Origin: Longimicrobiales bacterium
Lineage (GTDB): Bacteria; Gemmatimonadota; Gemmatimonadetes; Longimicrobiales; Gaopeijiaceae
Assembly (NCBI GenBank): GCA_965202985.1
Contig: CBDBCF010000001.1
Span: 1,760,001 to 1,824,000 of the forward strand
Direction: 5' to 3'
DNA length: 64,000 bases
Part shown: positions 4,865 to 62,400 of the stretch, piece by piece
Layout: every line of letters begins with the position of its first letter
How positions within the stretch are numbered: the stretch's first letter is position 1
Translations under genes and position numbers: made by a program
The notes under the pieces: generated by a model
What the model was told of the DNA's origin: nothing
Databases searched by the model: none
The model's input: the letters and a program-made list of their open reading frames with translations, nothing else

Positions 4865-4937
4865 ATCATGGTCGTGGTCCGAGCCGTGTATTCGACGGCG
4901 GAGGCGTGAAGCAGAGCGGAACTGCGGGGTCCAACGG

Positions 4938-6347
4938 CTACGGGTCGAGCACATAGCGTGGTCCCGGGGTCCCCGACAACCGAACGACTTGCCCGTCTCC
5001 TGCGAAGTCGCCGAAGGGGGTCGGAGTCAGGTCGTGCACCGAGGTGAACTCGGTCAGCACCATGCCGGTAGCGATCTCGATCTCCAAGGCCTTTGAACGG
5101 TTACCGAAGGTGGCGATCAGCCTTTGCCGGTCCGGGGAGATCGACAAGAGACCCTGCCAGTGCGTAAAGAAGTTGCGGGGTCGCCCGGCGTCGAGGGCGA
5201 CGGGGAAGACGGTCGTCTCGCTGCCGTCGGCCAAGTCGATCGTCAGCACTCGCGAAGGTCCGTCTCGGTCTGCTTCGACGCCCCAGTTGTCGAAGACGAG
5301 AAACCGGGAGTCGCTCAAGTGCTTGACGGAATGCTGCCCGGCGAAGGTTCCCCGCACCAGCGTCTTGACGTCGAAGCCGTCCCGGTCGAGCACGGCGAAG
5401 GCGTTCAAGTTCCGCAGCGACACCACGAGGTCGCCCGGACCGATGCCCGACGGTCCCGTCGCGTCGGGCCCCAGCTCGTGCACCGAGTTCACGTGGAGCG
5501 GGCTACATGGATCGCCCGCGTGCCGCAGCAAGAACCGATAGCGGGAAGCAGCCAGCTTCTCCCAGATCGAGACCTCTTCGAGAAGCTCGCCGTCGGGTCC
5601 GATCTTGCGCACAGTATCGACGTAGGGCTTCGCGCAAGGCAGCTCGAAGCCGAGGTTATGCTTGGGGGCTTGGTAGTGCACGCGGAGCGGGCCTTGGCCG
5701 ATGCGCAGGCCGGGAACCCAGGCCACGTCGTCGGCCGCGAGATGGGGTTCGTGATGACTGTAGTCTCTTCGATACCAGGCCGCCGTGCCGTCGGGTCGAA
5801 TCCGCGCGACGCCCCCGGCGAAGGGGAAGGCGCCATTGTAGTGGAAGACCGCGAGCAGGTCGCCGTTGGGATACGTGTCCACGGCGAACACGTAGGCGTC
5901 GTCGACCAGCTTGATGTCGAACAGGGACTCGTAAGGCAGGTCCACGATCGTCGCTTGCTCGATCTCGCTCGGGCGATAGGGATAGGCGCGAGCGACTTGG
6001 CCTTGGCCGACGTACTCGACGGCCACGCATCCGGGATGCCCCGGACACAGCTCGGCAAACCGTCCGACGCTTCCCGGCCACACGATGCGATCCGTCAGTC
6101 CGCTCTGGTTGTGAAACACGATGCGCGCAGCCTCCACTTCGCTGGAAGACAGGTCTACGGGCGCGGATCTCCGCAGATCCTGCGGCGGTTCGCGCCACTT
6201 GTCACGGATAGCATCGGCAGTTCTCCAGGCCGACCGGAACAGTTCGTAGGGGAATGCCTTCGTTAGCCCGACCTGCACGCCGCCCAAGAACACGACCACG
6301 GCCAGCGCCGCCCCGAACAAGACCACAGGAGTGCGGCGGCGGCGCAA
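4938..6347 (-). CDS. Arylsulfotransferase-family (ASST-like beta-propeller) protein with N-terminal membrane anchor; start uncertain
   Basis: HVNSV..GDLVVSLRNLN..GQHSV..LVFDN motifs; ORF-track N-terminal extension is IS sequence; TTG 6347 or out-of-frame ATG 6367. Confidence 0.75.
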   Translation of the reverse strand: MRRRRTPVVLFGAALAVVVFLGGVQVGLTKAFPYELFRSAWRTADAIRDKWREPPQDLRRSAPVDLSSSEVEAARIVFHNQSGLTDRIVWPGSVGRFAELCPGHPGCVAVEYVGQGQVARAYPYRPSEIEQATIVDLPYESLFDIKLVDDAYVFAVDTYPNGDLLAVFHYNGAFPFAGGVARIRPDGTAAWYRRDYSHHEPHLAADDVAWVPGLRIGQGPLRVHYQAPKHNLGFELPCAKPYVDTVRKIGPDGELLEEVSIWEKLAASRYRFLLRHAGDPCSPLHVNSVHELGPDATGPSGIGPGDLVVSLRNLNAFAVLDRDGFDVKTLVRGTFAGQHSVKHLSDSRFLVFDNWGVEADRDGPSRVLTIDLADGSETTVFPVALDAGRPRNFFTHWQGLLSISPDRQRLIATFGNRSKALEIEIATGMVLTEFTSVHDLTPTPFGDFAGDGQVVRLSGTPGPRYVLDP

Positions 6348-42705: not shown

Positions 42706-42720
42706 AGGAGGGTGACGCGA

Positions 42721-44034
42721 ATGAAAGGCACAACGATGATGAAGACAACGTTCTTCCGACTCCGGGGCGCGGCGGCCGTCGCCGCTCTCTCGGGCACGCT
42801 CTTTGCGGCGTGCGACACCGACGTCGTTAACCCCGGCCGAGTCCAGGAAGTCTTCCTGTTCGAGACCGAGGCCCAAAGCGCGATCGTCCACGGGATCGGG
42901 CGGGCCGTCGCCGAGGCCCAGAACTGGGTCGGATACACGGGCGCGGCGGTCACGCGCGAAATCCACCCCTCCGGCTCCACGGGAAGCTTCGGCATCCAGG
43001 TGGAGTGGCAGAACGGCTTCCTCGAACACGAGACGATCAACACGCACTGGAATCTGTCCCAGCGCGCCCGTTGGTGGGGCAACGACGGAATCGCCAAGAT
43101 CAACGAGACGGGCGCCGAAGATCAGGCGCTGCTGGCGGAGGCGCACTTGTGGGCGGGGTACGCCCATCGGCTCATGGGCGAGAACTTCTGCCTGTCCGTG
43201 ATCGACGGCGGCTCCGCCGGCCCGCGAAGCGCCTACTTGGACGGCGCCATGAGCCACTTCGACCAAGCCGCCTCCATCGGCTCGGGCGACTTGGCCATGG
43301 CGGCCCGGGCCGCGCGCGCCGCCGTGAAGGCGTTCAACGGCGACTGGGCGGGCGCCGCGTCCGACGCGGCGGGGGTGCCCGACGACTTCGTGTGGCACCT
43401 GCCGTACTACTCGGACAGGGACGACCCGACCAAGAATCGAATCCAGTGGGCCAGCCAGGCCGAACCCTACAAGGCTCATACGCAGAAGTACACCAAGTAC
43501 GAGGAGATGGGCCTGAGCGAGAACAACCCGGACGGCGACCCCCGGGTGCCCTTCCGCATAACCGAGGAGACCGGCGATGCGGCCGTCCAGTGTTGCGGGC
43601 GGGTGCCGTGGTGGCCGCAGGACAAGTACACCGAGCCGGGCGCCGACATCCCCATGTCCAAGGGCGCCGAGATGCGCATGATCGAGGCCGAAGCAATGCT
43701 GACCGGCGGCGACTGGCAGGGGGCCCTGGCCAAGATCAACGAGGTGCGCGCGGCGGCCGGGGCGCGACTGTGGCGGGACGACGAGGTGGACAGTGCCGCC
43801 GACGCATGGGCCGTGCTCAAGCACGAGCGGGGCGTGGTTACGTGGCTGGAGGGTCGTCGTCTGGGGGACTTCTTCCGCTGGAACCGGGACAACACGCCCG
43901 GCCTCCTGCATGACCTGGAAATAGTGACGGGCGGACAGGAGGTGGGCTCCCACTTGGTCACGCAGGACCTGTGCTTCCCAATCGCGCGCAGCGAGGTGGA
44001 CACAAACGACAACATCAGCGGTCCCACGGGCTGA
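42721..44034 (+). CDS. SusD/RagB-type outer-membrane lipoprotein
   Basis: Follows the susC-like gene; lipobox FAAC; MIEAEA, INEVR, LEGRRLGD, FPIARSE. Confidence 0.9.
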   Translation: MKGTTMMKTTFFRLRGAAAVAALSGTLFAACDTDVVNPGRVQEVFLFETEAQSAIVHGIGRAVAEAQNWVGYTGAAVTREIHPSGSTGSFGIQVEWQNGFLEHETINTHWNLSQRARWWGNDGIAKINETGAEDQALLAEAHLWAGYAHRLMGENFCLSVIDGGSAGPRSAYLDGAMSHFDQAASIGSGDLAMAARAARAAVKAFNGDWAGAASDAAGVPDDFVWHLPYYSDRDDPTKNRIQWASQAEPYKAHTQKYTKYEEMGLSENNPDGDPRVPFRITEETGDAAVQCCGRVPWWPQDKYTEPGADIPMSKGAEMRMIEAEAMLTGGDWQGALAKINEVRAAAGARLWRDDEVDSAADAWAVLKHERGVVTWLEGRRLGDFFRWNRDNTPGLLHDLEIVTGGQEVGSHLVTQDLCFPIARSEVDTNDNISGPTG

Positions 44035-44080
44035 CCGGCGGCGTGGCGTGGGGGTTGTTTGCCCCCGAGTCCGCAGTTCA

Positions 44081-44117
44081 CGAGCCCGGACCGACCGGAA
44101 ACGGCGGTCCGGGCTCG
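44081..44117 (+). terminator. Strong hairpin downstream of the susD-like gene
   Basis: 13-bp stem cgagcccggaccg / cggtccgggctcg; weak U-tail. Confidence 0.5.
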
Positions 44118-44170
44118 GTTCGCTGGGGGGTTGCCCCCCTTGCGTTTCCGGTGTTTTGAGGCAGTTGCCC

Positions 44171-44200
44171 TTGCTTGTGGTCGCACGCCAAGGGTAAGAT
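44171..44200 (+). promoter_or_regulatory. Candidate sigma70 promoter for the giant gene
   Basis: TTGCTT-N18-TAAGAT in the intergenic region. Confidence 0.4.
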
Positions 44201-44393
44201 GGACGACTGGCTATAAGTCCCGGTGCGTTCTCCTTGCGGCCAGATCCGGTACGCAGGGCGTCGTGCCAACTAACCCGATTCCCCTCGGATCATCGTGTGC
44301 TCCTTGATCGGCGACCCCCCTTCCGTTCGGCCTAGCACGTGCGTCACGGTTCGGTGCGGCTTGGACGCAACGACCGAGCGGCGGGACCAAACT

Positions 44394-44405
44394 GGGGGGG
44401 GGGGG
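44394..44405 (+). repeat. G12 homopolymer tract
   Basis: 12 consecutive G ending 44 bp before the giant ORF's GTG. Confidence 0.95.
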
Positions 44406-44449
44406 CTTGCGGGCGACGTGAGTCGTCCCGTCTCGTCGCGAATCCAGCC

Positions 44450-47400
44450 GTGAGCCGGCGAGGACGGTTCTCCGCGATCGTGGCGCTTGCCGCGTCGGCG
44501 TCCGCCCTGGCAGGCCCCGTCGCTGCTCAGGCGCCTGCGGCGCCGACCGGGTTCTGGGCCCACCAAGCCACCACCTCGTCGATCGATCTGGGCTGGGACA
44601 ACCCGGGCAACGCGGCGATCACCAGGTACCAGTACCGCTACGCCTTTTACAGATCCAATCTCCCCAATCAATGGACGGACGTCGCAAACAGCGACAGCAG
44701 CACGACTTCGGCCACGGTCGGAGGCTTGAGCAGCCCCAGGCGGTACCAATTCGAAATCAGGGCCTGCGCCGGCGCCGCATGCGGCGGGGCGAGCAGGACG
44801 AGAGTCAGTACGGCCAACGTGCCGATCAGCGGCGTTTCGATCACGAGTTCGCCGACGGGCGACACGTACGCCGCTGGCGAGACGATTGTGGTAGCGGTCA
44901 CGTGGACCAACAGCGTCCGCTACGCTCGTGGAGCCCATCCGTACCTGGACATCACGATCGGCGGCGCCAGCCGACGGGCGTCATGGAACTACACCGTTCG
45001 TAATCAGCCCACTCATACGTTCCGCTACACCGCCCAAACGGCGGACGTGGACAGCGACGGGATCAGCATCGGTCCCAATGCGCTGAGCGACCTCGATCTC
45101 TTCTGGGCCTGGGGCGGCCACCCCACCATGACGATCGGCAAGCACCGCATCGTCGACGCCGCCGGGCACAAGGTCAACGGCGCGCTGGCCGCCCCGGCCG
45201 CCCCCGCCGGGCTGGCCGCGACGGCGGCGCCGGGCCAAGCGACGCTGACGTGGACCGACCCCGGGAACTCCACCATCGGCAGCTACGAGGTTCGCCACGC
45301 CCTGGACACGGCCAGCTACCCGTCGAGCTGGACGACGATCGCGGGCAGCGACGCCACCACCACCCGCCACGTGGTCCGTCCGCTGACGAACGACAGCAAG
45401 TACAAGTTCCAGCTCCGGGCCAGGAACGGCGCCGGGGCCGGCTCGACGAGCGAAGCCAAGGCGACGCCGACCACCCTTCCGCTGGTGTCGGCAGTGCGCT
45501 TCGTCGGCACGCCTCTTGCGGGCGACACCTACGGCGCCGGCGAGGTCGTCCAACTGGAGGTGCAGTTCAGCGCGCCCATCGCGTTGACCGGTGCGCCTCG
45601 GCTGGCGCTGGCGGTCGGCAGCGCCGTGCGCCACGCGGCCTACGAGAGCGTCGGGGCGAACAGCATCCGCTTTCGGTACGTCGTGCAGGCGGGGGATTCG
45701 GACTTGGACGGGATCGGCGTCGCCGCCAACGCGCTCGCGCTCAACGGCGGGACGATCAAGGAGGTCGGCGGAACGCGGAATGCCGGGCTCGGCCTGGGGG
45801 CCGCCGCCTTCTCGGCCAACGCGAGCCACAAGGTGAACGGCGCTTCGGCGACCGCGCCGAGCGTGAGCGGCGTGCGCATCACCAGCGCTCCTTCGTTGAG
45901 TGCCCAAGTGTACGGGGGCGGCGAGCTGATCGAGGTGGAGGTCGAGTTCGCCGCCGCGGTTCCGATCCGGGTCGTCGGAAGTCCCCGGCTGCAGATCGCT
46001 TTCGGCGGGGGGCCCGCGTTCGCGACGTTGCGCAGAACGTCCGGCCGGTCGCTGCACTTCGGGTACGTGGTGACCAGCGGCGATCTCGACCCCGACGGGA
46101 TCAGCATCAGGACGACCGCCCTGCAGCTGAACGGCGGGACGATTCGGAGCACGGCCGGCGCCGCCGCGAACCTGGACCTGGGAAGCCACGCCATCTCCAA
46201 TGCGTCGGGCCACCGGGTGATCGGGACGACCACCACCACGCCCACCGTGAGTTCGGTGGCGGTCGTCGGCGCGCCGGCGAGCGGAGACACCTACGGCGCC
46301 GGCGAGGCGGTTCGCGTGGAAGTCGGGTTCACGGTGCCGGTGACGGTCACCGGGAGCCCCACCGTCTCCTTGAGGGTTGGTTCGCTGGCCAAGACGGCCG
46401 CATATCAGAGCGGGAGCGGCGGCAAGAAGCTGACCTTCCGCTACGTCGTGCGGTCGGCGGACAGGGACGCGGACGGCGTCTCAGTGTTCGCCATGGCGCT
46501 CAACTCCGGCACGATCCGGAGCGCGGCCGGGGCGAACGCCACCTTGGCGCTGGGCGCGCACGCGGTCACCAACGCCTCGGGCCACAAGGTGAACGGCAGC
46601 ACGGCGACGGTTCCCGCGGTGCGCGCGGCGTCGATTGCGAGCGCGCCGGCCAGCGGGGACACCTACGGCGCGGGCGACACGATCTCGGTGCAGATCGGCT
46701 TCACCACGCCGGTGAGCGTGACGGGCACGCCCCGCGTGGCGCTGGGAATTGGCGAGAGGACCCAGTACGCCGAGTACGCCAGCGGAAGCGGGACCAGCAC
46801 GCTGACGTTCAGCTACGTTGCGCGGGCGACGGACCGGGATCGCGACGGGATCAGCGTCGGGTCCGGCGCGCTGACGCTCAACGGCGGGTCGATCGTCAGC
46901 GAGTCGGCCCAGAACGCCACGCTCGCCCTGGGCACGCACGCGCTCAGGGCCGCCTCGGGCCACAAGGTGGACGGGAGCAGGACGATGCCTGCGGTGACCA
47001 ACGTACTCGTCACGAGCAGGCCGGACAGCGGGGACACCTACGCGGCGGCCGAGACGATCTCGGTGCAGGTGTCGTTCGGGTTCGCCGTGACGGTCACGGG
47101 CACGCCCCGGCTGGCCCTGACGATCGGGAGCGCTACCCGCCACGCGGCCTACGCGAGCGGGAACGGAACGAGCGCGTTGACGTTCAGCTACGAGACCTCG
47201 GCGACGGACTTGGACGCGGACGGGATCAGCGTGGGCGCGAACGCGCTGGCGCTGAACGGCGGAAGCATCCGGAGCGGGACGGGCGCCGCCGCGACGCTGG
47301 GGCTGGGAAGCCACGCATTCTCCAACGTGCCCGCCCACAAGGTAAACGGGACCAGGACGGTGCCGGCGGTCGCCTCCGTCGCGATCGCGAGCAGCCCGGC

Positions 47401-50400
47401 GAGCGACAGCACCTACGGGGCGGGAGAGACGATCTCGGTGCAGGTCGCGTTCAATCTGGCGGTGACGGTGACGGGCGCCCCTCGGCTGGCCCTGACCGTC
47501 GGGAGCGCCACGCGCTACGCGGCCTACGCGAGCGGAAGCGGCGCCAAGACGCTCACCTTCAGCTACGAGACGGTGGCCGGCGACCGGGACAACGACGGGA
47601 TCAGCATCGCGGCCGGCGCGCTGGGGCTGAACGGCGGTACGATCCGGAGCACGGGGGGCGCGACCGCCGCACTGGCCTTGGGCACGCACGCGATCTCGAA
47701 CTCGGCGGCGCACAAGGTGAACGGGAGCACGACGGCGCCGACGGTGGCGTCCGTGACGATCTCCAGCACGCCGAGAGGGGGCACGTACGCGCTGGGTACC
47801 ACGATCTCCGTGCAGGTCGGCTTCAGCATCGCCGTGACCGTAACCGGGACGCCTCGGTTGGCGCTGACGATCGGGAGCGCCACGCGACAGGCCTCGTACG
47901 CAAGCGGGAGCGGGACGAAGACGCTCACCTTCAGCTACACGGTGGTGGCGGCGGACAGGGACGGCAACGGGATCAGCGTCGGAGCGACCGCGCTGGGGCT
48001 CAACGGCGGCACGATCCGGAGCGCCACGGCAACCAACGCCACGCTGGGCCTGGGTGCCCACGCGGTCTCCGACGCCTCGGACCACGCGGTCGACGGCAGC
48101 ACGGTGGCGGCGGCACCCAGCGGGCTGACCGCCACGCCGACGAGCTCCACCCAGATCCGCTTGGACTGGAGAGACCCCGCCAACAGCCGAATTACGAAGT
48201 ATCAGTTTCGCTACCGGCAGACGCCCAATGGCAGGTTCAACAGTTGGGCGGACGTTCCTTCCAGCAATGCGAGGACGACCTCCCATACCGTTGGCGTAAC
48301 TGAAACGCGGCATCGCTACGCGATCGAGCTGCGAGCCGCGGTCGGTACCGTGGCGGGGAGCGCGGCTTCCGCAACGGCGAGCGTGTTCAACGCCTACATC
48401 AGCCGAATCGAGATTACAAGCAGGCCGGGGACCGGGAACAGCTACAGTACTGGAGAGACAATAACGGCGAGGTTCCATGTCGCTGGCGGATGGGACATCG
48501 ACGTGACTGGCGACTGGGGACCCAGTTTAAGCTGGCAAATCGGCAGCACGACGCGTACACCTACGGGTCGGAACAATGGCCTAAGGGTGTATCAAGCGCA
48601 AAGTGAAGCCTATTTCGACTACAGTTACACAGTCGCGGCAGGCGACCATGATCCGGACGGCATCAGCATCGGACCGAACGCGTTGGATTACGGCTTCTGG
48701 AATCCTAGATGGCGCCAATTCCAACACGGGATCGAGGTCTATCAACCGTCCCGCAGCCTCATTTCGCCGACCATCGGGAACAATCAGATCTTCAACGCCC
48801 CCGCTCACAAGGTAAACGCTTCTGCCACGGTTGGGGGCTCGGTTCCCGCGGCGCCCACGGGATTGACCGCGACTCCGGGCAATGCGCAAGCAACCTTGAA
48901 CTGGACCGATCCGCAGGACTCCACGATCGTCGGCTACCAAGTCCGGCACGGGCCGGCGGCTGGTTCGTACTCGGGCTGGACCGACATCTCGGGAAGCAGC
49001 GCGACCACGACCAGCTACACGGCGGGGTCGCTGACCAACGGCGCCGCGTACAAGTTCCAGGTGCGAGCGGCGAACGCCAACGGGACCGGCTCGGAGAGCT
49101 CCGAAGTCAGGGCGACGCCGGTCGCCGTCACGGTCGTCAGCGGCGTGCGCTTCGCCAACGGGCCGCGCACCGGCGACACCTACGGGGCGGGAGAGGTCGT
49201 TCGGGTCGAAGTGGACTTCAGCGACTCGGTCGCCGTGACCGGCGAACCGCTGCTGGAGCTGACGATCGGGGACAGCGTCAAGCAAGCATTTGGCGTACGC
49301 CTGCCCTCTCGGCCCAATACGATCCACTTCCGCTACACGGTGGAGACGGCCGACGTGGACGCCGACGGAATCGGGATCGCCGCGGGCGCCCTGAAGCTGA
49401 ACGGCGGGACGATCATCGGCGTCAACAGCAGGGCGGCGCTGCTCGGCTTGGGGGCCTACGCGTACGCGGCCAACGCGAGCCACAAGGTGGACGGGAGCAC
49501 GGGCACCGTCCCGAACGTGGACCTGGTTCGGATCACCAGCACGCCCGTCAGCGGCGACGTTTACGGATCAGGCGAGCAGATCGAGGCCGAGGTGCGGTTC
49601 GGCGCCCTGGTGCCGATCCGAGTCGTGGGCGCGCCCCGGTTGGCGCTGGCGATCGGGGACTCGACCCGGCAGGCGACGCTGACCCGAACGGCGGGGCAGT
49701 CGCTGCACTTCCGCTACGCGGTGCGCTCCTCGGACTCGGACGCCGACGGGATCGGGATCGCCGCGGGCGCCCTGACGCTGAACGGCGGGACGATTCGGAA
49801 CACGGTCGGCACCAACGCGAGCCTGAACTTGGGCAGCCATGCGATCACCGCCGCCGCGACCCACAAGGTGACCGGCAGCAGCGCCACCGCGCCCGCCGTG
49901 ACGGGGGCCGCGGTCACCAGCACGCCCGTCAGCGCCGACACGTACGGAGCGGGCGAGAAGATCGGGGCGAGCGTCACCTTCAGGCTGCCGATCACCGTGA
50001 CCGGCAGCCCGCAGCTGGGGCTGACGATCGGGACGCAGACGCGCCAGGCCACGTACCTGCGGACGGCGGGCCGGACGCTCCACTTCGAGTATGCCGTGCA
50101 GGCGGCCGACCGGGACGCCAACGGGATCGGGATCGGCGCAAGCGCGCTGACGCTCAACGGCGGCACGATCCGGAGCGTCGCGGGGGCGGCGGCGACGCTG
50201 GGGCTGGGCAGCCATGCGCTATCGGACGCGTCCGGCCACAAGGTGAACGGCGCCGTCGCCCCGAACCCGTTCGTGAGCGCCGTTCGGATTGCGAGTCGGC
50301 CGCTGGCGTCCGCGGACAGCTACGGAGGCGGGGAGCGGATTGAGGCGGATGTGGAGTTTGCGGCGGCGATCGCGATCCGGGTCAGCGGCAGTCCGCAGCT

Positions 50401-53400
50401 GGCGATCGGCATCGGGAGCCAGACGCGCCAAGCGACGTTGCTCGAGACGACGGGTCAGGTGCTGCGCTTCGGCTACGTCGTGCAGCGGGCGGATTTGGAC
50501 GCGAACGGCATCAGCATCTTGGCGGACGCCTTGGCGTTGAACGGCGGGACGATCCGGAGCGCCGCCGGGGCCGGCGCGGTCCTGGGCTTGAGCGCCCACG
50601 CGATCACGGACGCCGTCGGCCATAAGGTGTTGGGCTCCAACAACGCCACTCCGGCCGCGACCTCGGTGGAGATCAGCAGCGCTCCGGACGACGGCGACAC
50701 CTACGGGGCCACCGAGACGATCTCCGTGGCCGTCGGGTTCAACGTGCCGGTGACCGTGACGGGAACGCCGCAGCTGGCGGTGACCATTGGAAGCGGCGCC
50801 GGGCAGGCGTCCTACTCGAGCGGCAGCCAGACGAAGACGCTGACGTTCGACTACGTAGTGGGCGCCACCGACGTGGACGCCGACGGGATCGGCGTCGGCG
50901 GGAGCGCCCTGACCCTGAACGGCGGGACGATACGGAGCGCCACGGCGGCGAACGCGACGCTGAGCTTGGCCGGCCACGCCATTGCGAACGCGGCCGGCCA
51001 CAAGGTGAACGGCACGACGACCGCGCCCGCCGTCTCGTCCGTGGGGGCCGCCAGCCAGCCGGCGATCGGCGGATCGTACGGGGCTGGCGAGACGATCTCG
51101 GTGCAGGTCGGGTTCGACTTGGCCGTGACGGTGACGGGGACGCCGCAGCTGGCGCTGTCGCTGGACGCCGACACGGTGCAGGCGGCCTACGCCGGCGGGA
51201 GCGGGACGAAGACGCTGACCTTCGGCTACACGGTGCGGGCGACGGACCGGGACGCGGACGGGTTCACCGTCGAGCGCGGGGCGTTGACCCTGAACGGCGG
51301 GACGATCCAGAGCGCCGGCGGGGCCGATGCGGCGCTGAGGTTGAACGTTGAGTTGCTGAGCGACCAGATCGACGGGAGCGTGACGCCGCCCGAGGTCGCC
51401 TCGGCGCGATTCGACACCAGCCCGGCCTCGGGAGACACGTACGGCGCCGGCGAGCTGATCGCGGTGCGGATCGGCTTCCAGATCCCGGTGACTGTGACGG
51501 GGAGCCCGCAGCTGGCGCTGGGGATCGGGGTCGCCACGGTGCAGGCGTCGTACGCGGGCGGGAGCGGGAGCAAGTTGCTGGCGTTCAGCTACGTGGTGCA
51601 GTCCGCCGACGTGGACGCGGACGGCGTCAGCGTGGGGTCCACCGCGTTGGCGCTGAACGGCGGGACGATCCGGAGCGCGGCTGGAACCAACGCCAGGCTG
51701 GAGCTGGGAAGGACCCACCAGATCACGAACTCCAGCGGCCACAAGGTGGACGGATCCATGGCGACGCCGCCGTCGGTGACGGGGGCGAGGGTCGTGAGCA
51801 GGCCGGCCAGCGGCGACACCTACGGGGGCGGCGAGCGGATCGAGGTGGCCATCGAGTTCAGCATCCCCGTGGTCGTGACGGGCGCGCCCGAGTTGGCGCT
51901 GACGATTGGAGACTCGACGCGGCAGGCGGCGTACCTGAGCGGCAGCCGGACGGAGACCGTGACGTTCGGCTACGTCGTTCGGGCGACGGACGTGGACGCC
52001 GACGGATTCGCCGTCGCAGACAGCGCTTTGTCGCTGGCCGGTGGAACGTTGCAGAGCTCTTTCGGGGCCGCGGCGACGCTGAGCTTGGGCAGCCACGCCC
52101 TTGCCGGCGTCGCCGCCGGGAAGGTGAGCGGCGCGACGGCGACGGTGCCGGCCGTGGCCTCGGCAGCGATATTCAGCGACGCGGGAAGCGACAGCACGTA
52201 CGGCGCAGGCGACGGGATCGCGGTGCGGATCGTCTTCCAGATCCCGGTGACGGTGACGGGGAGCCCGCAGCTGGCGCTGGGAATCGGGACCGGCACGGCG
52301 CAAGCGTCGTACGCCGGCGGGAGCGGGACGAAGACGCTGACGTTCCGCTACACGGTGCGGGCGACGGACGTGGACAGCGCCGGGATCAGCGTGGGCGCGG
52401 GCGCGCTGTCGCTGAACGGCGGGACGATCCGGAGCGGCACTGGCACGAACGCCACGTTGGGGCTGGGCGCGAATGCGGTTGCGAACGCGGCCGCCCACAA
52501 GGTGGACGGCACCACGACGGTTCCTGCCGTGCTTGCGGTGGTGATCGCCAGCGACGCGGGCGCCGACAGCACGTACACGGCGGGCGACACGATCTCGGTG
52601 CAGGTCGTCTTCCAGATCCCGGTGACGGTGACGGGGAGCCCGCAGCTGGCGCTGGGGATCGGGACCGGCACGGCGCAGGCGACGTACGCCGGCGGGAGCG
52701 GGACGAAGACGCTGACGTTCGACTACGTGGTGCAGGCGGCGGACGTGGACAGCGCCGGGATCAGCGTGGGCGCGAGCGCGCTGGCACTGAACGGCGGGAC
52801 GATCCGGAGCGGCTCCGGCACGAACGCGGCGCTGGGGCTGGGCGCGCACGCGATCGCGAACGCCGCCGCCCACAAGGTGAACGGCCCTGGGAGCCCGCCG
52901 CGGGTGACGGGGGTGGTCGTCGGGTCGCCGGTGGTGGGCGACACCTTCGAGCGGGGCGAGGCGATTTCCGCGACGCTGACGTTCGACAAGGCGGTGGACG
53001 TGACGGGGACGCCGCAGTTGGCGCTGACGATCGGCTCGACGACGCGGCAGGCGGGCTATACAAGTGGGACGGGAACGACGTCGCTGGTCTTCCGCTACGT
53101 GGTGGTGGCGGCCGACGCGGACGCGGACGGAATCAGCATCGCCGCCGCCGCGCTGGCGCTGAACGGCGGGACGATCGACGCGGCGGGCGGGACGACGGAC
53201 GCCGTGCTGGGGCTGGGCTCTCATGCGCTGTCGAACAGTTCGGGCCACAAGGTGGCGGGCGGGATGTTCACGGCGGCTGCTGCGAGCGGCGTGACGATCA
53301 CGAGCAGTCCGGCCGGCGACAGCACCTACGTCCTGGGCGAGCAGATCCAGGTCGAAGTGACCTTTGCCCGGCCCGTCGCGGTGACGGGGACGCCGCAGTT

Positions 53401-56400
53401 GGCGCTGACGATCGGCGCGGCGACGCGCCAAGCCGACTACGCCTCTGGGACGGGCACGAAGACGCTGGCGTTCGCTTACGCGGTGGCGGCGGCGGACACC
53501 GACGCCGACGGGATCAGCATCGGCGCGAGTGCGCTGGGGCTGAATGGCGGGGCGATCGCCGACGCCCGGGACGGGGCGACGGCGGCGAGCCTGGGTCTGG
53601 GCGCGAACGCAATCGCGAACAGTGCGGCGCACAAGGTGAACGGCGCGCGCGGGCCGCCGGGGGTGACGGGGTTGGCTGTTGCGTCGCCGGTGGTGGGCGA
53701 CACCTTCGAACGCGGCGACACGATTGCTGCGACCGTGACGTTCAACAAGGTGGTGGACGTGACTGGGACGCCGCAGTTGGCGCTCACGATCGGCACGGCG
53801 ACGCGGCAGGCGGGTTATGCCAGCGGGACGGGGACGGCGTCGCTGGTCTTCCGCTACGTGGTGGCGTCGGGCGACGCGGACGCGGACGGGCTCAGCATCG
53901 GGGCGGGCGCGCTGGCGCTGAACGGCGGGACGATCGACGTGGCGGGCGGGACCACGGACGCGCTTCTGGGGCTGGGCGCGCATGTGCTCTCGAACAGCTC
54001 CGGCCACAAGGTGGCGGGGGGCACGTTCACGGCGGCGGCGGTGACCGGCGTGGCGATCGCGAGCAGCCCGGCCAGCGACAGCACCTACGGTCTGAACGAG
54101 CGGATCGAAGTGAAGGTGGCGTTCAGCCGTCGCGTGAGCGTGACGGGGACGCCGCAGCTGGCGCTGACGATCGGCGCGGCGACGCGGCAGGCCGACTACG
54201 CCTCGGGCACGGGGACGGACACGCTGTCGTTCGCCTACGTCGTGGGGGCCGCGGACGCCGACAGCGACGGGCTGGGGGTCGGCGCGAGCGCGCTGACCTT
54301 GAACGGCGGGGCGATTGCCGACGCCCGCGACGGGACCACGGCGGCCGGCCTGGGGTTGGGCGCGAACGCCATCGCCGCTGCCGCGGCGCACAAGGTGGAC
54401 GGGACGCGCGGTCCGCCGACGGTGACGGGCGTGGCGGTCGGGTTGCCGGTGGTGGGCGACACGTTCGAGCGGGGCGACACGATTGCGGCGACGGTGACGT
54501 TCAACAAGGCGGTGGACGTGACGGGGACGCCGCAGTTGGCGCTGACGATCGGCGCGGCTACGAAGCAGGCCTCCTACGCTTCCGGCACGGGGACGGCATC
54601 GCTGGTCTTCCGCTACGTGGTGGCGAGTGGCGACGCGGACGCGGACGGGCTCAGCATCGGCGCGAGCGCACTGGCCCTGAACGGCGGTACGATCGACGAG
54701 GCTGGCGAGACGACGGACGCTGCCCTCGGGCTGGGCAGTCACGCGGTGAGCAACAGCTCGGGCCACAAGGTGGCGGGCGCGACCTTCACGGCGGCGGCGG
54801 TGACGGGCGTGTCGATCACCAGCAGCCCGGCCAGCGACAGCACCTACGGCCTGAACGAGCGGATCGAGGTGAAGGTGGCGTTCGGCCGTCGCGTGAGCGT
54901 GACGGGGACGCCGCAGCTGGCGCTGACGATCGGCGCGGCGACGCGGCAGGCCGACTACGCCTCGGGCACGGGCACGGACACGCTGTCGTTCGCCTACGTC
55001 GTGGGGGCCGCGGACGCCGACAGCGATGGGATCGGGGTCGGCGCGAGCGCGCTGACCTTGAACGGCGGGGCGATCGCCGACGCCCGGGACGGGGCGACGG
55101 CGGCCGGCCTGGGGTTGGGCGCGAACGCCATCGCCGCTGCCGCGGCGCACAAGGTGGACGGGACGCGCGGTCCGCCGACGGTGACGGGCGTGGCCGTCGG
55201 ATCGCCCGAGGTGGGCGACACCTTCGAGCGGGGCGAGGCGATTTCGGCGACGCTGACGTTCAACAAGGCGGTGGACGTGACGGGGACGCCGCAGCTGGCG
55301 CTGACGATCGGCGCGGCGACGCGGCAGGCGGATTATGCCAGCGGGACGGGGACGGCGTCGCTGGTCTTCCGCTACGTGGTGGCGAGTGGCGATGCGGACG
55401 CGGACGGGCTCAGCATCGGCGCGAGAGCGCTGGCGCTGAACGGCGGGACGATCGATGTGGCGGGCGGGACGACGGACGCCGTGCTGGGGCTGGGCTCTCA
55501 TGCGCTGTCGAACAGCTCGGGCCACAAGGTGGCGGGCGGGACGTTCACGGCGGCGGCGGCGAGCGGCGTCGCGATCACGAGCAGCCCGGCCGGCGACAGC
55601 ACCTACGTCCTGGGCGAGCAGATCGAGGTCGAGGTGACGTTCGCCCGCCCGGTGGCGGTGACGGGGACGCCGCAGCTGGCGCTGACGATCGGCGCGGCGA
55701 CGCGCCAGGCCGACTACGCCTCTGGGACGGGCACGAAGACGCTGGCGTTCGCTTACGCGGTGGCGGTTGCGGACATCGACACGGTCGGGCTCAGCATCGG
55801 CGCGAGCGCGCTGGGGCTGAACGGCGGGGCGATTGCCGACGCTCGGGACAGCACGACGGCGGCAAGCCTGGGGCTGGGCGCGAACGCGATCTCGAACAGT
55901 GCGGCGCACAAGGTGAACGGCGCGCGGGGGCCGCCGGGGGTGACGGGCTTGGCCGTAGGGTCGCCGGTGGTGGGCGACACCTTCGAGCGGGGCGACACCG
56001 TTGCCGCGACGGTGACATTCAACAAGGCGGTGGACGTGACGGGGACGCCGCAGCTGGCGCTGACGATCGGGTCGGCGACGCGGCAGGCGGGCTATGCCAG
56101 CGGGACGGGGACGGAGTCGCTGGTCTTCCGCTACGTAGTGGCGAGTGGCGACGCGGATTCGGACGGGCTCAGCATCGAGGCGGGCGCGCTGGCGCTGAAC
56201 GGCGGGACGATCGACGTGGCGGGCGGGACCACGGACGCGCTTCTGGGGCTGGGCGCGCATGTGCTCTCGAACAGCTCCGGCCACAAGGTGGCGGGGGGCA
56301 CGTTCACGGCGGCGGCGGTGACCGGCGTGGCGATCGCGAGCAGCCCGGCCAGCGACAGCACCTACGGTCTGAACGAGCGGATCGAAGTGAAGGTGGCGTT

Positions 56401-59400
56401 CAGCCGTCGCGTGAGCGTGACGGGGACGCCGCAGCTGGCGCTGACGATCGGCGCGGCGACGCGCCAGGCGGAGTACGCCTCGGGCACGGGGACGGACACG
56501 CTGTCGTTCGCCTACACGGTGGGGGCCGCGGACGCTGACAGCGACGGCCTGGGGATCGGCGCGAGCGCGCTGACCTTGAACGGCGGGGCGATCGCCGACG
56601 CCCGGGACGGGGCTGCGGCGGCCGGCCTGGGTTTGGGTGCGAACGCAATCACCGCCGCCGCGGCCCACAAGGTGGACGGAACGCGGGGTCCGCCGACGGT
56701 GACGGGCGTGGCCGTGGGGTCGCCGGTGGTGGGCGACACCTTCGAGCGGGGCGACACGATTGCGGCGACGGTGACGTTCAACAAGGCGGTGGACGTGACG
56801 GGGACGCCGCAGCTGGCGCTGACGATCGGCGCGGCGACGCGGCAGGCGGATTATGCCAGCGGGACGGGGACGGCGTCGCTGGTCTTCCGCTACGTGGTGG
56901 CGAGTGGCGATGCGGACGCGGACGGGCTCAGCATCGGCGCGAGCGCGTTGGGGCTGAACGGCGGTACGATCGACGAGGCGGGCGGGACGACGGACGCCGC
57001 CCTCGGGCTGGGTTCTCACGCGGTGTCGAACAGCTCGGGCCACAAGGTGGCGGGCGCGACCTTCACGGCGGCGGCGGTGACGGGCGTGTCGATCGCGAGC
57101 AGCCCGGCCAGCGACAGCACGTACGGCGCGGGTGACCGGATCGAGGTGGAGGTGACGTTCGCCCGCTCCGTCGCGGTGACGGGGACGCCGCAGCTGGCGC
57201 TGACGATCGGCGCGGCGACGCGGCAGGCGGATTACGCCAGCGGCACGGGCACTTCGACGCTGGCGTTCCGCTACGCGGTGGCGGCGGCGGACAGCGACTC
57301 CGACGGGATCAGCATCGGGGCTGGCGCGCTGACGCTGAACGGCGGCGGAATCGCCGACGCGCGGGACGGCGCCACGGCAGCCGGCCTGGGTTTGGGCGCG
57401 AACGCCGTCTCGAACAGCGCGGCGCACAAGGTGAACGGCAGCCTCGCGACCCCGGCGGCGCCCAGCGGTCTCACGGCGACGCCCTCCGCCAGCGGCGCAG
57501 TTCAGTTGCGCTGGACCGACCCCAGCGACACGACGATCACCAAGTACCAGGTCCGGCACCGCAACCAGTCGGGCTCGGGCAGCTTCACCGCATGGGCGGA
57601 CGTGCCGAGCAGCAGCGCGAGCACCACCAGGCACACCGTCTCGTCGCTGACCGACCAAGTGGACTACCGCTTCGAGCTCCGAGCCGTGGCCGGCTCCAGG
57701 GCGGGACGCGCGAGCTTCGCCCTGGCCCGGCCCAGCGACATCTGGGTCACCGGCGTGCGGATCACGAGTTCGCCGACCTCCGACAACACGTACGGACCCG
57801 GCCAGACGATCGAAGTCACGGTCTCGTTCTCGGCGTTCCGCCCCCGCGTCACGGGCTCGCCGGTGCTGAAGATCGGCGTGGGGACCGCCACACGGGACGC
57901 GGCCTACTCCGGCACCGGCCTCACGAGCGCGCGCTTCCAGTACACCGTCACGGCCGCCGACGCGGACAGCGATGGGATCACCATCGGTCCCAACGCCCTG
58001 GACTTCACCAACGGCTGGGTGAACACGCGCTTCAGCATCGCTTCTCCGACGATTGGCCGGTACGCCATTGCCAACAGCGCCAGCCACAAGGTGGACGGAC
58101 TGCTGGGAACGCCGGCGGCCCCCACCGGCTTCTCGGCGAGTCCGGGCAACGCCCAGGTCACGTTGAACTGGACCGACCCGTCGGACACGACGCTCACCGG
58201 CTACCAGTTCCGCCAGGCGATCGCCACCGAGCCGTTTTCCCGCTGGACGGACATATCGGGAAGCGACGCCAGCACGACGAGCCACATCGTCCCGTCGCTG
58301 TCGAACGGAACCGAGTACAAGTTCCAGGTTCGGGCGCAGAACTCGGTGGGGGCGGGACACGCGAGCGAGGAGGCGAAAGCGACTCCGACGTCGGCGCCCG
58401 TCGTCGCGGCGGTGCGGTTCATGGGCGCGCCGGTGAGCGGCGACACCTACGGCGCGGGCGAAGTCGTGCGCGTGGACGTGGAGTTCAGCGCTGTGCTCAC
58501 CGTCACGGGGACGCCCCGGCTGGCGCTGACGGTCGGCGCCAACGCGCGGCAGGCCGCCATGGAACGCGTGCAGGAACGCTCGATCCGGTTCGCGTACACG
58601 GTGCGGAGCGTGGACGTGGACGCCGACGGGATCGGGGTCGCGGCGGCGGCGCTGACGCTCAACGGCGGCACCATATCGGGTCCCGGCGGCGCCTCCGCCC
58701 AGCTCTCTTTGGGCGCCCGCGCCTTCACCGCGAACGCCGCCCACAAGGTGAACGGCGCCACGGCCACGGCCCCGTTCGTCGACTTCGTCCAGATCACGAG
58801 CAGTCCGTCCAGCGGCGACACGTACGGCGGCGGGGAGCGGATCGACGTGCACGTTCGGTTCGGCGCGGCGGTTCCGATCACGGTCGCCGGCAGTCCCCGG
58901 CTGGCGCTGACCGTCGGAGCGCAGACGCGCCAAGCGACGTTGAGCGGCGCGTCGGGGCAGTCGCTCCACTTCGGCTACGTGGTGCAGGCCGCGGACGCAG
59001 ACGCGGACGGGATCTCCATCGGGGCGAGCGCGCTGACGCTGAACGGCGCGACGATTCGCAGCGGGACCGGGGCCGCCGCGGGTCTGGGGCTGGGCACCCA
59101 CGCAGTGGCCGACGCCTCGGGCCACAAGGTCTCGGGCAGCACGGCGACCGCGCCGGCCGTGAGCGCCGTGTCGATCAGGAGCGCGCCCGCGAGCGGCGAC
59201 ACCTACGGTGCCGGCGAGAAGATCACGGCCAGGGTGACGTTCCAGCTGCCGATCGTGGCCACGGGGGTGCCCCGGCTGGCGCTGACGGTCGGCGCGCAGA
59301 CGCGGCAGGCCGAATTCGCCCGTCTTTCGGGCCAGTCGCTGTACTTCGACTACACGGTGCTGTCGTCCGACGCCGACGCCGACGGCATCTCCATCGCCGC

Positions 59401-62400
59401 GAACGCCCTTTCCCTCAACGGCGGCACGATCCTAAGCACGATCGGGACGGCGGCCGCGCTGGGCTTGGGCGCCCACGCGGTGACCAACGCGTCCGGCCAC
59501 AAGGTGTCGGGCAGCACGGCCACGACGCCGGAGGCGACGTCGGTTTCGGTGACGAGCGCGCCGGTGAGCGGCGACACCTACGGCGCCGGCGAGCGGATCG
59601 AAGTCAAGGTCGGCTTCAACCTCGAGGTGCGCGCGACCGGAAGCCCGCAGCTGGCCCTGGGCGTGGGGGCGGCCACCCGCCAAGCAGCGCTCCTGGGCAG
59701 GGACGGCGCCGGTCTGACGTTCGGCTACGTGGTCCAGTCGGCGGACGTGGACGCGGACGGAATCAGCGTCGGGGCGAGCGCGCTCGGGCTGAACGGCGGC
59801 TCGATCGCCAGCACGGCGGGCGCGGCGGCGGCGCTCGGCCTGAGCGGCCACACCGTAGCCAACGCTTCGGCCCACAAGGTGAACGGTGCCAGCGCCACTA
59901 CGCCGGCGGTGGTCTCGGCGGCGGTGACCAGCGCGCCGGCCAGCGGCGACACCTACTACGCCGGAGAGGCGATCGCCGTGGCCGTCGGCTTCGACGTTCC
60001 CGTGGCGGTGACGGGAGCCCCCCAGCTGGCCCTGACGATCGGCTCGCAGACGCGCCAAGCGGCGTACGCCTCGGGCACGAACACGAAGACGTTGACGTTC
60101 CGCTACACGGTGGTTCTGGCGGATTCGGACTCGAACGGGATCGCCGTGGGGGCAAGTGCGCTCGGGCTGAACGGCGGCGCGATCCGGAGCGGCGTGGGAA
60201 CTGCAGCCGGGCTCGGGCTGGGCGCGCACGCCATCGCGGACGCGACCGGCCACAAGGTGGACGGAACCTCCACGTCGCCGACCGTGAACGCCGCCTCGAT
60301 ATCGAGCACGCCGGCCAGCGGCGACAGCTACGGCGCGGGCGAGACGATCGCGGTCGAGATCGGGTTCAACTTCCCGGTGACGGTGACGGGCACGCCTCGC
60401 GTGGCGCTGACGATCGGCTCGGCGACCCGGCACGCCGACTACGTGAGCGGCAGCGGCAACACCAGCCTTCGGTTCGAGTACGTGGTGGACGCGACCGACG
60501 CCGACGCCAACGGCATCTCGCTGGGCGCGAGCGCGCTGGCCCTGAACGGCGGCACGATGCGGAGTTCGCTGGGCACCGACGCCGCGCTCGGGCTGGGCGC
60601 CCACGCCATTGCCGACGCCTCGGCCCACAAGGTGAACGGGGCCGCTACGGTGCCAGCCGTGACCGGCGCGACGATCGTCAGCGACGCAGGGAACGACAGC
60701 ACCTACGCCGCCGGCGACGAGGTGTCGATCGAGGTCGCGTTCCAGATTCCGGTGACGGTGACGGGCACGCCGCAGCTGGCGCTGACGATCGGGGCGGGCG
60801 CCGGGCAAGCGGCGTACGCGAGCGGGTCGGAGACCAAGACCCTGACGTTCAGCTACACCGTCCGGGCCACGGACGTGGACGCCAACGGGATCGCCGTTGC
60901 GGCGAACGCGCTGACGCTGAACGGCGGCGCGCTTCAGAGCGGGGCCGGCACCAACGCGGCCCTGAGCCTGGGGACGAACGCGATCGCCGACGCGGCGGCC
61001 CACAAGGTGGACGGAACCTCGACGGTCCCGGTGGTGACTGGCGCTTCGGTCGCCAGCTCGCCGGCCGGCGGCGACACCTACGGCGCGGGCGAGACGATCT
61101 CGGTGCGCATCGGGTTCAGCATTCCGGTGACGGTGACCGGCGCCCCGCAGCTCGCCGTCGCGGTGGGGAGCGCGACCCGGCAGGTGGCCTACGCCAGCGG
61201 GAGCGGAACGACGGCGCTGGTCTTCGACTACGTGACGCTGGCGACGGACCGCGACAACGACGGCATCAGCGTGGGCGCCGGCGCCCTGACGTTGAACGGC
61301 GGCACGATCCAAAGCGGTTCCGGCACCAACGCCACGCTGACGCTGGGCGGCCACGCCATCGCGAACGCCGGGGGCCACAAGGTGAACGGCGCCTCGACGG
61401 CCCCGCTCGTGAGCTCGATGTCGATCTCCAGCGCGCCGGCGAGCGGCGACACCTACGGCGGAGGCGAGAAGATCACGGTCTCGGTCGTCTTCCAAATACC
61501 GGTGACGGTGACCGGAACCCCGCAACTGGCGCTGACGGTCGGGAGCGCGACCCGCCAGGCCAACTACGCGAGCGGAAACGGGACCGCGGCGCTCGCCTTC
61601 GACTACGTGGTGCAGACGGCGGACTCGGATTCGAACGGGATCGGCGTCGGCCCCACGGCCCTGACGCTCAACGGCGGCACGATCCGCAGCGCCGCCGGGA
61701 CGAACGCGAACCTCAGCCTCTTCCTGAACGCGTTCTCGAACTCCCAGGACCACAAAGTGGACGGCTCCTCGGCAACAACGCCCACGGTGCGCGCCGTGAC
61801 GATCCGCAGCGACGCCGGGACCGACAGCACGTACTTCGCCCACGACGCGATCGTGGTGGAGGTCGGGTTCAGCGTTCCCGTGACCGCGACCGGCGCGCCG
61901 CAGCTGGCGCTGACGATCGGCGCCCAGACCCGCCAGGCCGCCTACGCCGCCGGGAGCGGCACGACGGCGCTGACGTTCCGCTACGTGGTGACGGCGGCGG
62001 ACTCGGACTCGGACGGGATCGACGTCGGTGCGAGCGCGCTGGCGCTGAACGGCGGCACGATTCGGAGCAGCGTGGGCGCCGACGCGACGCTGGGCCTGGG
62101 CGCGAACGCGATTGCTGCCGCCGCGGCCCACAAGGTGGACGGCTCCCAAGGTCCGCCGGGAGTGGCGGGCGTGGCCGTCGGCTCGCCGGTGGTGGGCGAC
62201 GCCTTCGAGCGGCTCGACACGATTTCCGTGACGGTGACGTTCGACCAGGCGGTGGACGTGACGGGCACGCCGCAGCTGGCGCTGACGATCGGGGCGGCGA
62301 CGAAGCAGGCGGCCTACGCCAGCGGGACCGGGACGACGGCGCTGGTCTTCCGCTACGTGGTGGCGTCGGGCGACATGGACGCGGACGGGCTCAGCATCGG

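Follow-up and report, generated by a model that had tools for sequence, protein, structure and literature searches.

The window analysed here is a stretch of 64,000 nucleotides from a Longimicrobiales bacterium (contig CBDBCF010000001.1, positions 1,760,001 to 1,824,000), and toward its right end begins a giant gene (44339–64000 within the window, on the plus strand like all window features given below). It is a single open reading frame (ORF) of 13,056 amino acids, whose stop lies past the window end at 83509 in window numbering. The frame holds 88 repeats of about 125 amino acids, six FN3 domains, five cadherin stretches and an autotransporter-like C-terminus—beyond the window, the repeats continue, and the cadherin stretches and a divergent autotransporter-like barrel are found there. 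In the following, a head is a divergent Ig-like repeat, FN3a and FN3b are the FN3 domains upstream and downstream of it, and a cassette is the unit FN3a–head–FN3b. The source genome (92% complete) is referred to as G000 and was compared with the genomes G001, G002, G003, G031, and G032.

The longest frame opens at the GTG at 44339, and the likely start is a GTG that leads into a Sec-type signal peptide (44450–44527), a candidate judged by eye from a hydrophobic stretch ending in VAA-Q. A G12 homopolymer (44394–44405), a candidate phase-variation tract, ends 44 nt ahead of this codon. The six FN3 domains come in three pairs, each around one divergent repeat (44534–45472, 48107–49123, and 57452–58390), just as a preliminary description of the sequence had stated. 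In cassette 1, FN3a (44534–44815) would form the N-terminal tip of the mature protein; it carries a Cys pair and is 94–95% identical in amino acids among G000, G001, and G031. The mildly accelerated head 1 (44804–45181) stands at 89–92% and FN3b (45194–45472) at 97–99%. Seven stalk repeats follow (45464–48097), equal in number in G001, G031, G003, and G032. Cassette 2 consists of FN3a (48107–48388), head 2 (48377–48820; a predicted Ig-like β-sandwich), and FN3b (48845–49123), and is separated from cassette 3 by 22 stalk repeats (49115–57439; 16 in G001 and 22 in G031), among them recent internal duplications. Within the giant gene, one internal duplication of 1,656 nt is still 92.8% identical. 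In cassette 3, amino acid identity to G001 is 92% for FN3a (57452–57736) and 99% for FN3b (58112–58390), while head 3 (57725–58099) is 97–98% identical across species and in G001 is present in a second gene as well. Pfam fn3 matches four stretches within amino acids 1–2000 and two in the second scanned piece of the giant ORF, and a hidden Markov model built from the six FN3 domains, run against the 30,120 ORFs of a six-frame translation of the genome, found no match outside the giant ORF.

Heads within a large Ig-like repeat family

The aromatic-rich loops that had been reported for the three heads are indeed present, at 45089–45130, 48686–48748, and 58001–58048. Aromatic residues make up 8.7, 12.8, and 8.8% of heads 1, 2, and 3, against a median of 4.7% for the 429 repeats of the genome, among which the heads rank 14th, 1st, and 13th; head 2 is the most aromatic repeat in the genome. 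The LNGG-type motif, described as lost in the heads, is missing from all three of them. The loss is not peculiar to them, as it extends to stalk repeat 4 (making 4 of the 88 repeats of the giant gene) and to many repeats elsewhere: 73 of the 429 lack the canonical motif, and FN3 flanks are found around only three of these—the heads—and around none of the other 70. Hence, divergent aromatic repeats are common in this repeat family. An IGPNAL-type motif, by which further heads were to be sought in relatives, does occur in 10 of the 150 top database relatives, but is almost never accompanied there by aromatic loops or FN3 flanks; it therefore does not define the heads and was rejected as a marker of them. 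The FN3–repeat–FN3 arrangement itself was seen in 1 of the 150 top relatives, in 7 of 74 genome loci, in 2 of 120 proteins, and in none of 49 JGI metagenome loci.

The repeat has no match in the Pfam copy searched, to which pieces of the giant protein were submitted, and a PDB sequence search with the repeat profile returned chance rows only (E 0.66 or worse). The same profile matches 19,515 cluster representatives, so that the repeat is a large Ig-like domain family without a model in that Pfam copy. With 90 repeats as input, the model of head 2 reached a pLDDT of 92. In structure, it comes closest to Ig-like domains of SbsC (Z 6.5, rmsd 3.0, 94 aligned residues), InvE (Z 6.0), filamin (Z 5.8–6.0), and invasin, spanning Z 5.8–6.5 over about 95 of 148 residues. 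These scores, as far as a predicted model carries, show a common Ig-like arrangement and not a family. With Foldseek, nothing reached E 0.001, and the many antibody V-domain rows in its output (TM 0.2–0.35) were not used in support of an antibody-like design. For a stalk repeat, the ESM Atlas lists unnamed clusters with a minority of Big_5/Big_12 labels, which we treat as a lead only.

Assuming the usual Ig topology and loop names, with their complementarity-determining region (CDR)-like positions, the three segments in which the heads differ would correspond to the BC, DE, and FG loops. From the order of strands in the model, these would lie on the N-terminal pole, facing FN3a.

At the far end of the protein, the C-terminus has a weak, below-cut-off match to the autotransporter barrel PF03797 (E 1.8e-5, 25.1 bits, profile positions 1–126 of 255), and the same domain is found in 3 of the 120 listed homologues. 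With a candidate signal peptide and a passenger that precedes the putative barrel in the domain order, membership in the type Va autotransporters is likely from sequence. The Chlamydia Pmp domains PF02415 and PF07548 are absent from the Pfam scans, which covered amino acids 1–2000 and 4101–5400, two stalk pieces, and the last 1,369 amino acids; the giant protein outside the scanned pieces consists of the Ig-like repeat.

Exchanged alleles, paralogues, and a moving gene

Fifteen sequencing runs hold the stretch—five sponge metagenomes, four marine metagenomes, and six with coded organisms—and contigs from four of them were compared with the window. Short-read contigs of run X1 tile 44200–51156 (36, 31, and 4 differences) and 57211–59048 (5 differences), and run X10 matches 47977–48788 exactly. 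The assembly of the heads is therefore sound. Contigs of run X5 leave some head 2 positions uncovered, and such gaps were given no weight.

On alignment with its homologues, cassette 2 presents itself as a sharply bounded, replaced allele of about 0.7 kb. Measured per 60 nt, identity to G001 drops from 0.92 to 0.40–0.82 across 48128–48847 and recovers to 0.97. The divergent stretch itself, at about 48,130–48,790, has flanks that are 90–100% identical to the G001 allele. At the protein level, FN3a is 57% identical to G001 and G031 (which share 92% with each other) and head 2 57–61% (78% between those two), while FN3b, the conserved right flank, stands at 98% versus G001 and 91% versus G031. Nonsynonymous and synonymous divergence (dN and dS) amount to 0.37 and 0.40 in FN3a and to 0.32 and 0.86 in the head, compared with a dS of 0.06 in both adjoining domains. 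As synonymous divergence is raised too, the pattern points to the import of an old allele rather than to point hypermutation. Head 2 forms two deep allele classes, with a further variant in the reads of run X8, whose version of the region differs at 98 of 1,769 nt; of the 11 head 2 codons in a partial list of these differences, 8 are nonsynonymous. Swappable cassettes had been proposed, and for cassette 2 this is borne out, except that the swapped unit is FN3a plus head 2 and not the head alone.

The three cassettes are old duplicates of a multi-domain block. While the heads share 42–43% amino acid identity with each other, the repeats following each cassette are 52–63% identical to their counterparts (56–63% for the one directly behind it), and the first repeats after the cassettes fall, together with their G003 counterparts, on one branch (SH-aLRT 100) of a quick-search tree of 126 columns, in which 13 of 84 branches are well supported. 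Hence, the old duplication comprised FN3a–head–FN3b together with several repeats. The tree groups heads 1 and 2 at a support of 91 and leaves the placement of head 3 unsettled, so a single origin of all heads is not given by the head tree. Collinear genes with three cassettes are found in G001 (13,587 amino acids) and G031 (13,412 amino acids), and with two in G003 and G032.

The conserved FN3 flanks had been suggested as recombination handles. Within the gene, however, FN3a copies share 47–59% and FN3b copies 67–69% DNA identity, with exact matches of 8–15 nt, which makes them poor handles between positions. Moreover, FN3a was itself replaced along with head 2, and head 3 moved between genes within a 6.7-kb block. 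The FN3 pairs were therefore rejected as handles.

This block belongs to a wider pattern. G000 contains 19 ORFs (of at least 60 amino acids) with the repeat, that is, 16 genes and three contig-end fragments. The 16 paralogues, of 1,400–13,000 amino acids, span 231 kb or 6.0% of the genome and are mosaics of shared blocks. Genes A and B have 9,909 nt in common at 97.8%, with further blocks downstream. In G001, a 6,712-nt block with cassette 3 is present in both the A and the B homologue (97.0%), while B of G000 has no FN3. The clearest constant–variable–constant design, which the preliminary description had placed in the giant gene, is found in the N-terminal tips of paralogues F, G, and N: the signal region is 94–98% identical, the first domain 36–55% in DNA, and the downstream DNA 92–100%. 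Seven tips are 42–57% identical to one another, the pair of C and L (80%) excepted. In other genomes, tip classes reappear at 79–95%, and an F-type tip is joined to an I-type body in G001 and G031; the variation is therefore a reshuffling of a stable set of modules. Taken at the level of sequence, blocks of 0.4 to more than 10 kb are shown to be exchanged among paralogues and distantly related species.

A few further features of the family were observed. The F, G, and J tips (C1:1473667, 725819, and 692004) carry Cys pairs in the presumed DE loop, unlike stalk repeats. M and O (C2:358271–370375 and C1:540137–546256) form a separate subtype with another C-terminus and no tract, and M has spacers of about 120 amino acids of another domain between its repeats. 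Both contigs start within family genes (C1:1–7085 and C2:1–12651), N being split there into pieces in different frames, which probably marks an assembly break due to repeats. Two of three tyrosine-recombinase loci (C2:64871–65332 and C1:1459412–1459800, the F-side one in two frames) are no more than 2 kb away from paralogues E and F, and B ends less than 300 nt from tRNA-Gly and tRNA-Cys; some family genes may have entered on integrative elements.

A dedicated diversifying system, as envisaged originally, was not found in any of the forms searched for. The genome has no match to the reverse transcriptase PF00078 at its 92% completeness, and no near-identical template repeat for the heads, the best other genome repeat reaching 40–50% amino acid identity; as the allele differences also include many synonymous ones, a diversity-generating retroelement (DGR) was rejected. 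Silent-cassette gene conversion is known from pilE/pilS, vlsE, and tprK. Here, all 19 repeat ORFs are long genes or contig-end pieces in an incomplete genome, with no array of partial silent copies among them, and this model was rejected as well. TprK draws on donor cassettes, whereas cassettes of this type were not found in this genome. A shufflon, with site-specific inversion, was set aside because no recombinase adjoins the gene and no conserved inverted sites were seen: the neighbours are susC/susD-like and metabolic genes with an ISL3 transposase 9 kb downstream, the tyrosine recombinase matches of the genome lie away from the giant gene, and the 25 longest inverted repeats are only 71–79% identical.

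Comparison across genomes further indicates that the giant gene moves horizontally. DNA identity to G001 reaches 92–96% in blocks across amino acids 52–7249, and to G031 91–95% across amino acids 107–8516, as against 77.4 and 75.0% in the flanking DNA. The latter had to serve as the background because rpoB was not found in G000 (the RpoB domain PF00562 has no match there, which agrees with a completeness of 92%). The homologues occupy different loci and have no upstream DNA in common, and from these identities at different loci horizontal movement follows. The homology sets in within the signal peptide, at 44492 for G001 and 44504 for G031, and contigs of runs X5 and X8 cease matching at the same points. 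In the rpoB region, identity of G031 is 72–76% versus 85% between G001 and G003, which makes G031 more distant than G003; yet the version in G003, of the same genus, reaches just 39–73% amino acid identity across its first 22 domains.

The left border of the insertion is a susD-family gene (42712–44034) behind a susC-like gene, which is outside the system. In G001, G002, and G031, the gene found in G000 on the downstream side of the giant gene follows susD within 1 kb, and the site is empty in three of four genomes searched; the 39-kb giant gene is therefore an insertion in G000. Past the susD stop, hairpins are found at 44034–44150, one of them terminator-like (44125–44139), and G001, G002, and G003 have a comparable GC-rich hairpin behind susD.

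In G032—labelled Candidatus Azotimanducaceae, a gammaproteobacterium—the gene (C1:211626–247982; loci L161 and L162) encodes 12,119 amino acids and has no tract. Its first 22 domains are collinear with G003 (59–90%), its C-terminus is unrelated (23–28%), and its flanks contain one 64.6% match to G000. Upstream of it, a tandem cluster (L163:5419–11200) holds at least five similar ORFs with an SSDGEPMA..YPE motif and a charged coiled tail, which we take to be Uma2-like.

Tracts and the interpretation of the family

A run of C or G is found in 11 of the 15 paralogues with an intact 5′ end, 109–156 nt before the first domain and 18–60 nt ahead of the signal-peptide start. The runs measure 12–28 nt in the assembled contigs, in which the lengths of long homopolymers may be inexact. 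The genome holds 31 runs of at least 11 nt, and the chance expectation at paralogue 5′ ends is 0.02–0.2. A tract also precedes 9 of the 12 homologues examined outside G000; those of the giant-gene homologues (C21 in G001, G22 in G031, and C19 in G003) stand in nonhomologous upstream DNA and in either orientation. An ATG lies within 30 nt upstream of 9 of the 11 tracts, in mixed frames (three in frame), and a complete signal-peptide start follows downstream in all 11. For the latter reason, an effect on transcription is preferred, and a frameshift model is disfavoured though not decided. A 3,385-amino-acid ORF on the minus strand of G000 (C2:777913–788114), with a signal-like start, a different repeat type, and a C19 tract lying 29 nt ahead of the frame, represents another type of giant surface gene marked by a tract. 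C/G runs of at least 13 nt occur in all five comparison genomes, and long tracts may be general to these symbiont genomes.

We consider it reasonably probable—at roughly 60%—that these genes form a phase-variable, recombination-shuffled repertoire of giant outer-membrane adhesins in a sponge-associated Longimicrobiales (Gemmatimonadota) bacterium, working like the Chlamydia Pmp and Treponema Tpr families; the adhesin role, ligand binding, and on/off switching are inferred. Exchange would proceed by ordinary homologous recombination through nearly identical stretches of stalk DNA in the gene itself or in its paralogues, not through FN3 pairs, and the donors would be other genes or other cells instead of silent cassettes. 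The functional unit of a cassette might be the FN3a–head junction, at which the BC, DE, and FG loops of the head would contact the AB, CC′, and EF loops of FN3a. Such junctions, together with the N-terminal tips of the paralogues, would be putative sites of ligand contact at intervals along a rod. Through slippage, the tracts would tune transcription, and cells might thus display different subsets of paralogues.

The distribution of variation fits a junction in part. In four of six comparisons, the putative junction loops vary more than the loops of the opposite pole (52/83 vs 15/52, 46/70 vs 8/52, 12/62 vs 3/51, and 29/70 vs 11/52 positions). The expectation that variable loops cluster on one face thus holds for most comparisons; in the other two it does not (15/78 vs 11/52 and 4/61 vs 5/52). 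These two comparisons weigh against the adhesin reading, as do several further points. The genomes compared are not independent; the loop poles were set by strand order and not from coordinates, and the loops were drawn after viewing the alignment. The five-domain model has a pTM of 0.50, which leaves the domain packing unsettled by the model, and every fold score is below Z 8 and may reflect a common arrangement only. At the C-terminus, the 25.1 bits of the barrel match are below the Pfam cut-off of 26 and cover half of the profile, and an NCBIfam search of the region gave no match. Hypervariability, claimed for all heads, is true of the replaced head 2 and in milder form of head 1, but head 3 matches the stalk in conservation, an outcome that the preliminary description had named as refuting it: this head is under purifying selection at 97–98% amino acid identity, with a proportion of nonsynonymous differences (pN) of 0.011–0.022 versus 0.021–0.030 in the stalk. 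For head 1, pN versus G001 is 0.069 with a synonymous proportion (pS) of 0.059, against 0.021 and 0.070 in the stalk, and the nonsynonymous excess is significant in two of three non-independent pairs (p 0.001, 0.011, and 0.27). As for the tracts, 20 of the 31 in the genome sit elsewhere than at paralogue 5′ ends, and a sigma-70-like promoter was not found near the G12 tract.

Of the alternatives, the one that survives best is structural and neutral, and we regard it as unlikely: the heads would differ through FN3 packing and old duplication, the aromatic loops would serve interdomain packing, and cassette 2 would be an ordinary import. It draws on the same loops, since these would face FN3a, on the purifying selection on head 3, on a head 2 dN below dS, and on patches of raised synonymous divergence in the stalk as well (dS 0.53 in domain 54 vs G001; pS 0.24 in domain 10 vs G031). 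However, head 2 is lowest in all three pairs (61, 57, and 78% vs 84–100% in the stalk), the further X8 variant is largely nonsynonymous in its partly listed codons, pN equals or exceeds pS for head 1 in two of three pairs, and equally aromatic repeats exist without FN3 neighbours.

The adhesin repertoire could also be extended beyond a single genome. Ig-type binding modules, namely FN3a–head junctions and N-terminal tips with loops at CDR positions, might form a community-wide library, passed between species and even phyla and spliced by recombination onto interchangeable stalks, with the poly-C/G tract acting both as an expression switch and as a G-quadruplex trigger of tip replacement—a G-quadruplex-forming run triggers gene replacement at Neisseria pilE. 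We hold this to be speculative and distinctly unlikely; if true, it would be an antibody-like repertoire of bacteria kept by a community and not by one genome.

Improbable, in our view, is that the variable surfaces are targets and not binders, that is, a coat of rods whose alleles and switching are selected for escape from phages, predators, or sponge cells. A 231-kb repertoire, tracts, and allele replacement would fit evasion as well as binding, and phase variation serves immune evasion in the pathogens treated in bioRxiv 10.1101/506121 and PMC7864442. On the other hand, tip and head classes are kept at 79–97% across distant species, a better fit to conserved specificities. Furthermore, loops with aromatic and Cys residues are typical of binding sites.

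The antibody-like cassette system of the preliminary description, with FN3 flanks as handles and hypervariable heads, is already largely refuted and retains a very small probability. One sharply bounded swap, the presence of cassette 3 in two genes of G001, and loops at what we take, by strand order, to be CDR-like positions speak for it. Against it stand the low DNA identity of the FN3 copies (47–69%, exact matches of at most 15 nt) and the position of FN3a inside the swapped segment, the size of the block moved in G001 (6,712 nt), and the conservation of head 3. Neither a reverse transcriptase, nor silent head copies (best other repeat 40–50%), nor an adjacent recombinase, nor an inverted repeat above 79% among the 25 longest was found, and the arrangement recurs in just 1 of 150 top relatives. 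An assembly artefact, in which chimeric repeats from a mixed metagenome yield the mosaic and the cross-species identity, can be dismissed as scarcely credible: G000 is incomplete with paralogues at contig ends, and samples of that type also contain genes like those of G001 and G031, yet X1 tiles and X10 exactly matches the region, the X5 and X8 breakpoints equal the ends of homology to G001 and G031, and orthologues in separate assemblies are collinear and open across 13,000 codons.

If the adhesin reading is correct, the family bears on how uncultured sponge symbionts attach to their host and are told apart by it. Segments of 20 kb at 92–96% between genomes otherwise 75–77% alike, and likewise the collinear N-terminal part in the gammaproteobacterium-labelled G032, point to traffic of surface modules inside the microbiome. 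The FN3a–head pairs and the seven tip domains, several with natural alleles, are small expressible candidates, and the putative switch is testable.

Comparison with known systems

The giant gene is neither a Pmp nor a DGR target nor a shufflon. The literature search, whose coverage leaves out most subscription papers, found no description of these giant genes.

The closest likeness in organization would be to the Pmp proteins of Chlamydia, such as PmpG: an expanded paralogous autotransporter family with poly-G/C tracts, phase variation, and gene conversion. There, the family takes up 3–6% of the coding capacity—here, 6% of the genome—and in PmpG, tracts combine with paralogy and gene conversion (bioRxiv 10.1101/506121). 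Pmp proteins differ in having in-gene frameshift tracts, fewer than 1,800 amino acids, and Pmp repeats (bioRxiv 10.1101/506121), whereas the present family has 1,400–13,000 amino acids, an Ig-like repeat with cadherins, tracts 18–60 nt before the start, and blocks shared across species. The tpr genes of Treponema pallidum likewise encode a set of paralogous surface proteins and have a poly-G tract ahead of the start, and these tracts vary, their length setting transcription (PMC7864442). Tpr proteins are putative porins with tracts of 7–11 G (PMC7864442); here, the tracts have 12–31 nt, mostly C on the coding strand.

Periscope Proteins resemble the giant protein in their tandem, similar folded domains, in a repeat number that varies between orthologues, and, putatively, in an N-terminal variable domain held off the surface (PMC8201768). 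The second trait is present here (cassettes 2 and 3 are 22, 16, and 22 repeats apart in G000, G001, and G031), while the giant family differs in its many diverged repeat types, in putative internal binding units, and in domains that are exchanged and not only gained or lost. Invasin, InvE, InvD, and FdeC as well as RTX adhesins share the outer-membrane-anchored rod of Ig-like β-sandwiches predicted here but are inverse autotransporters or type I substrates (PMC6555100). The repeat here, in comparison, has no PDB or Pfam sequence match and bears a long insertion before the last strand.

The same domain types are known from sponge symbionts, since an enrichment of cadherin and FN3 domains is reported for sponge microbiomes, with lateral transfer suspected (PMC10947273). 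The available part of that report counts domains and contains no 13,000-amino-acid genes, paralogue repertoire, tracts, or allele swaps (PMC10947273). What is new here is the scale, the unmodelled Ig-like domain, the internal FN3a–head units, and the recent exchange between distant symbionts.

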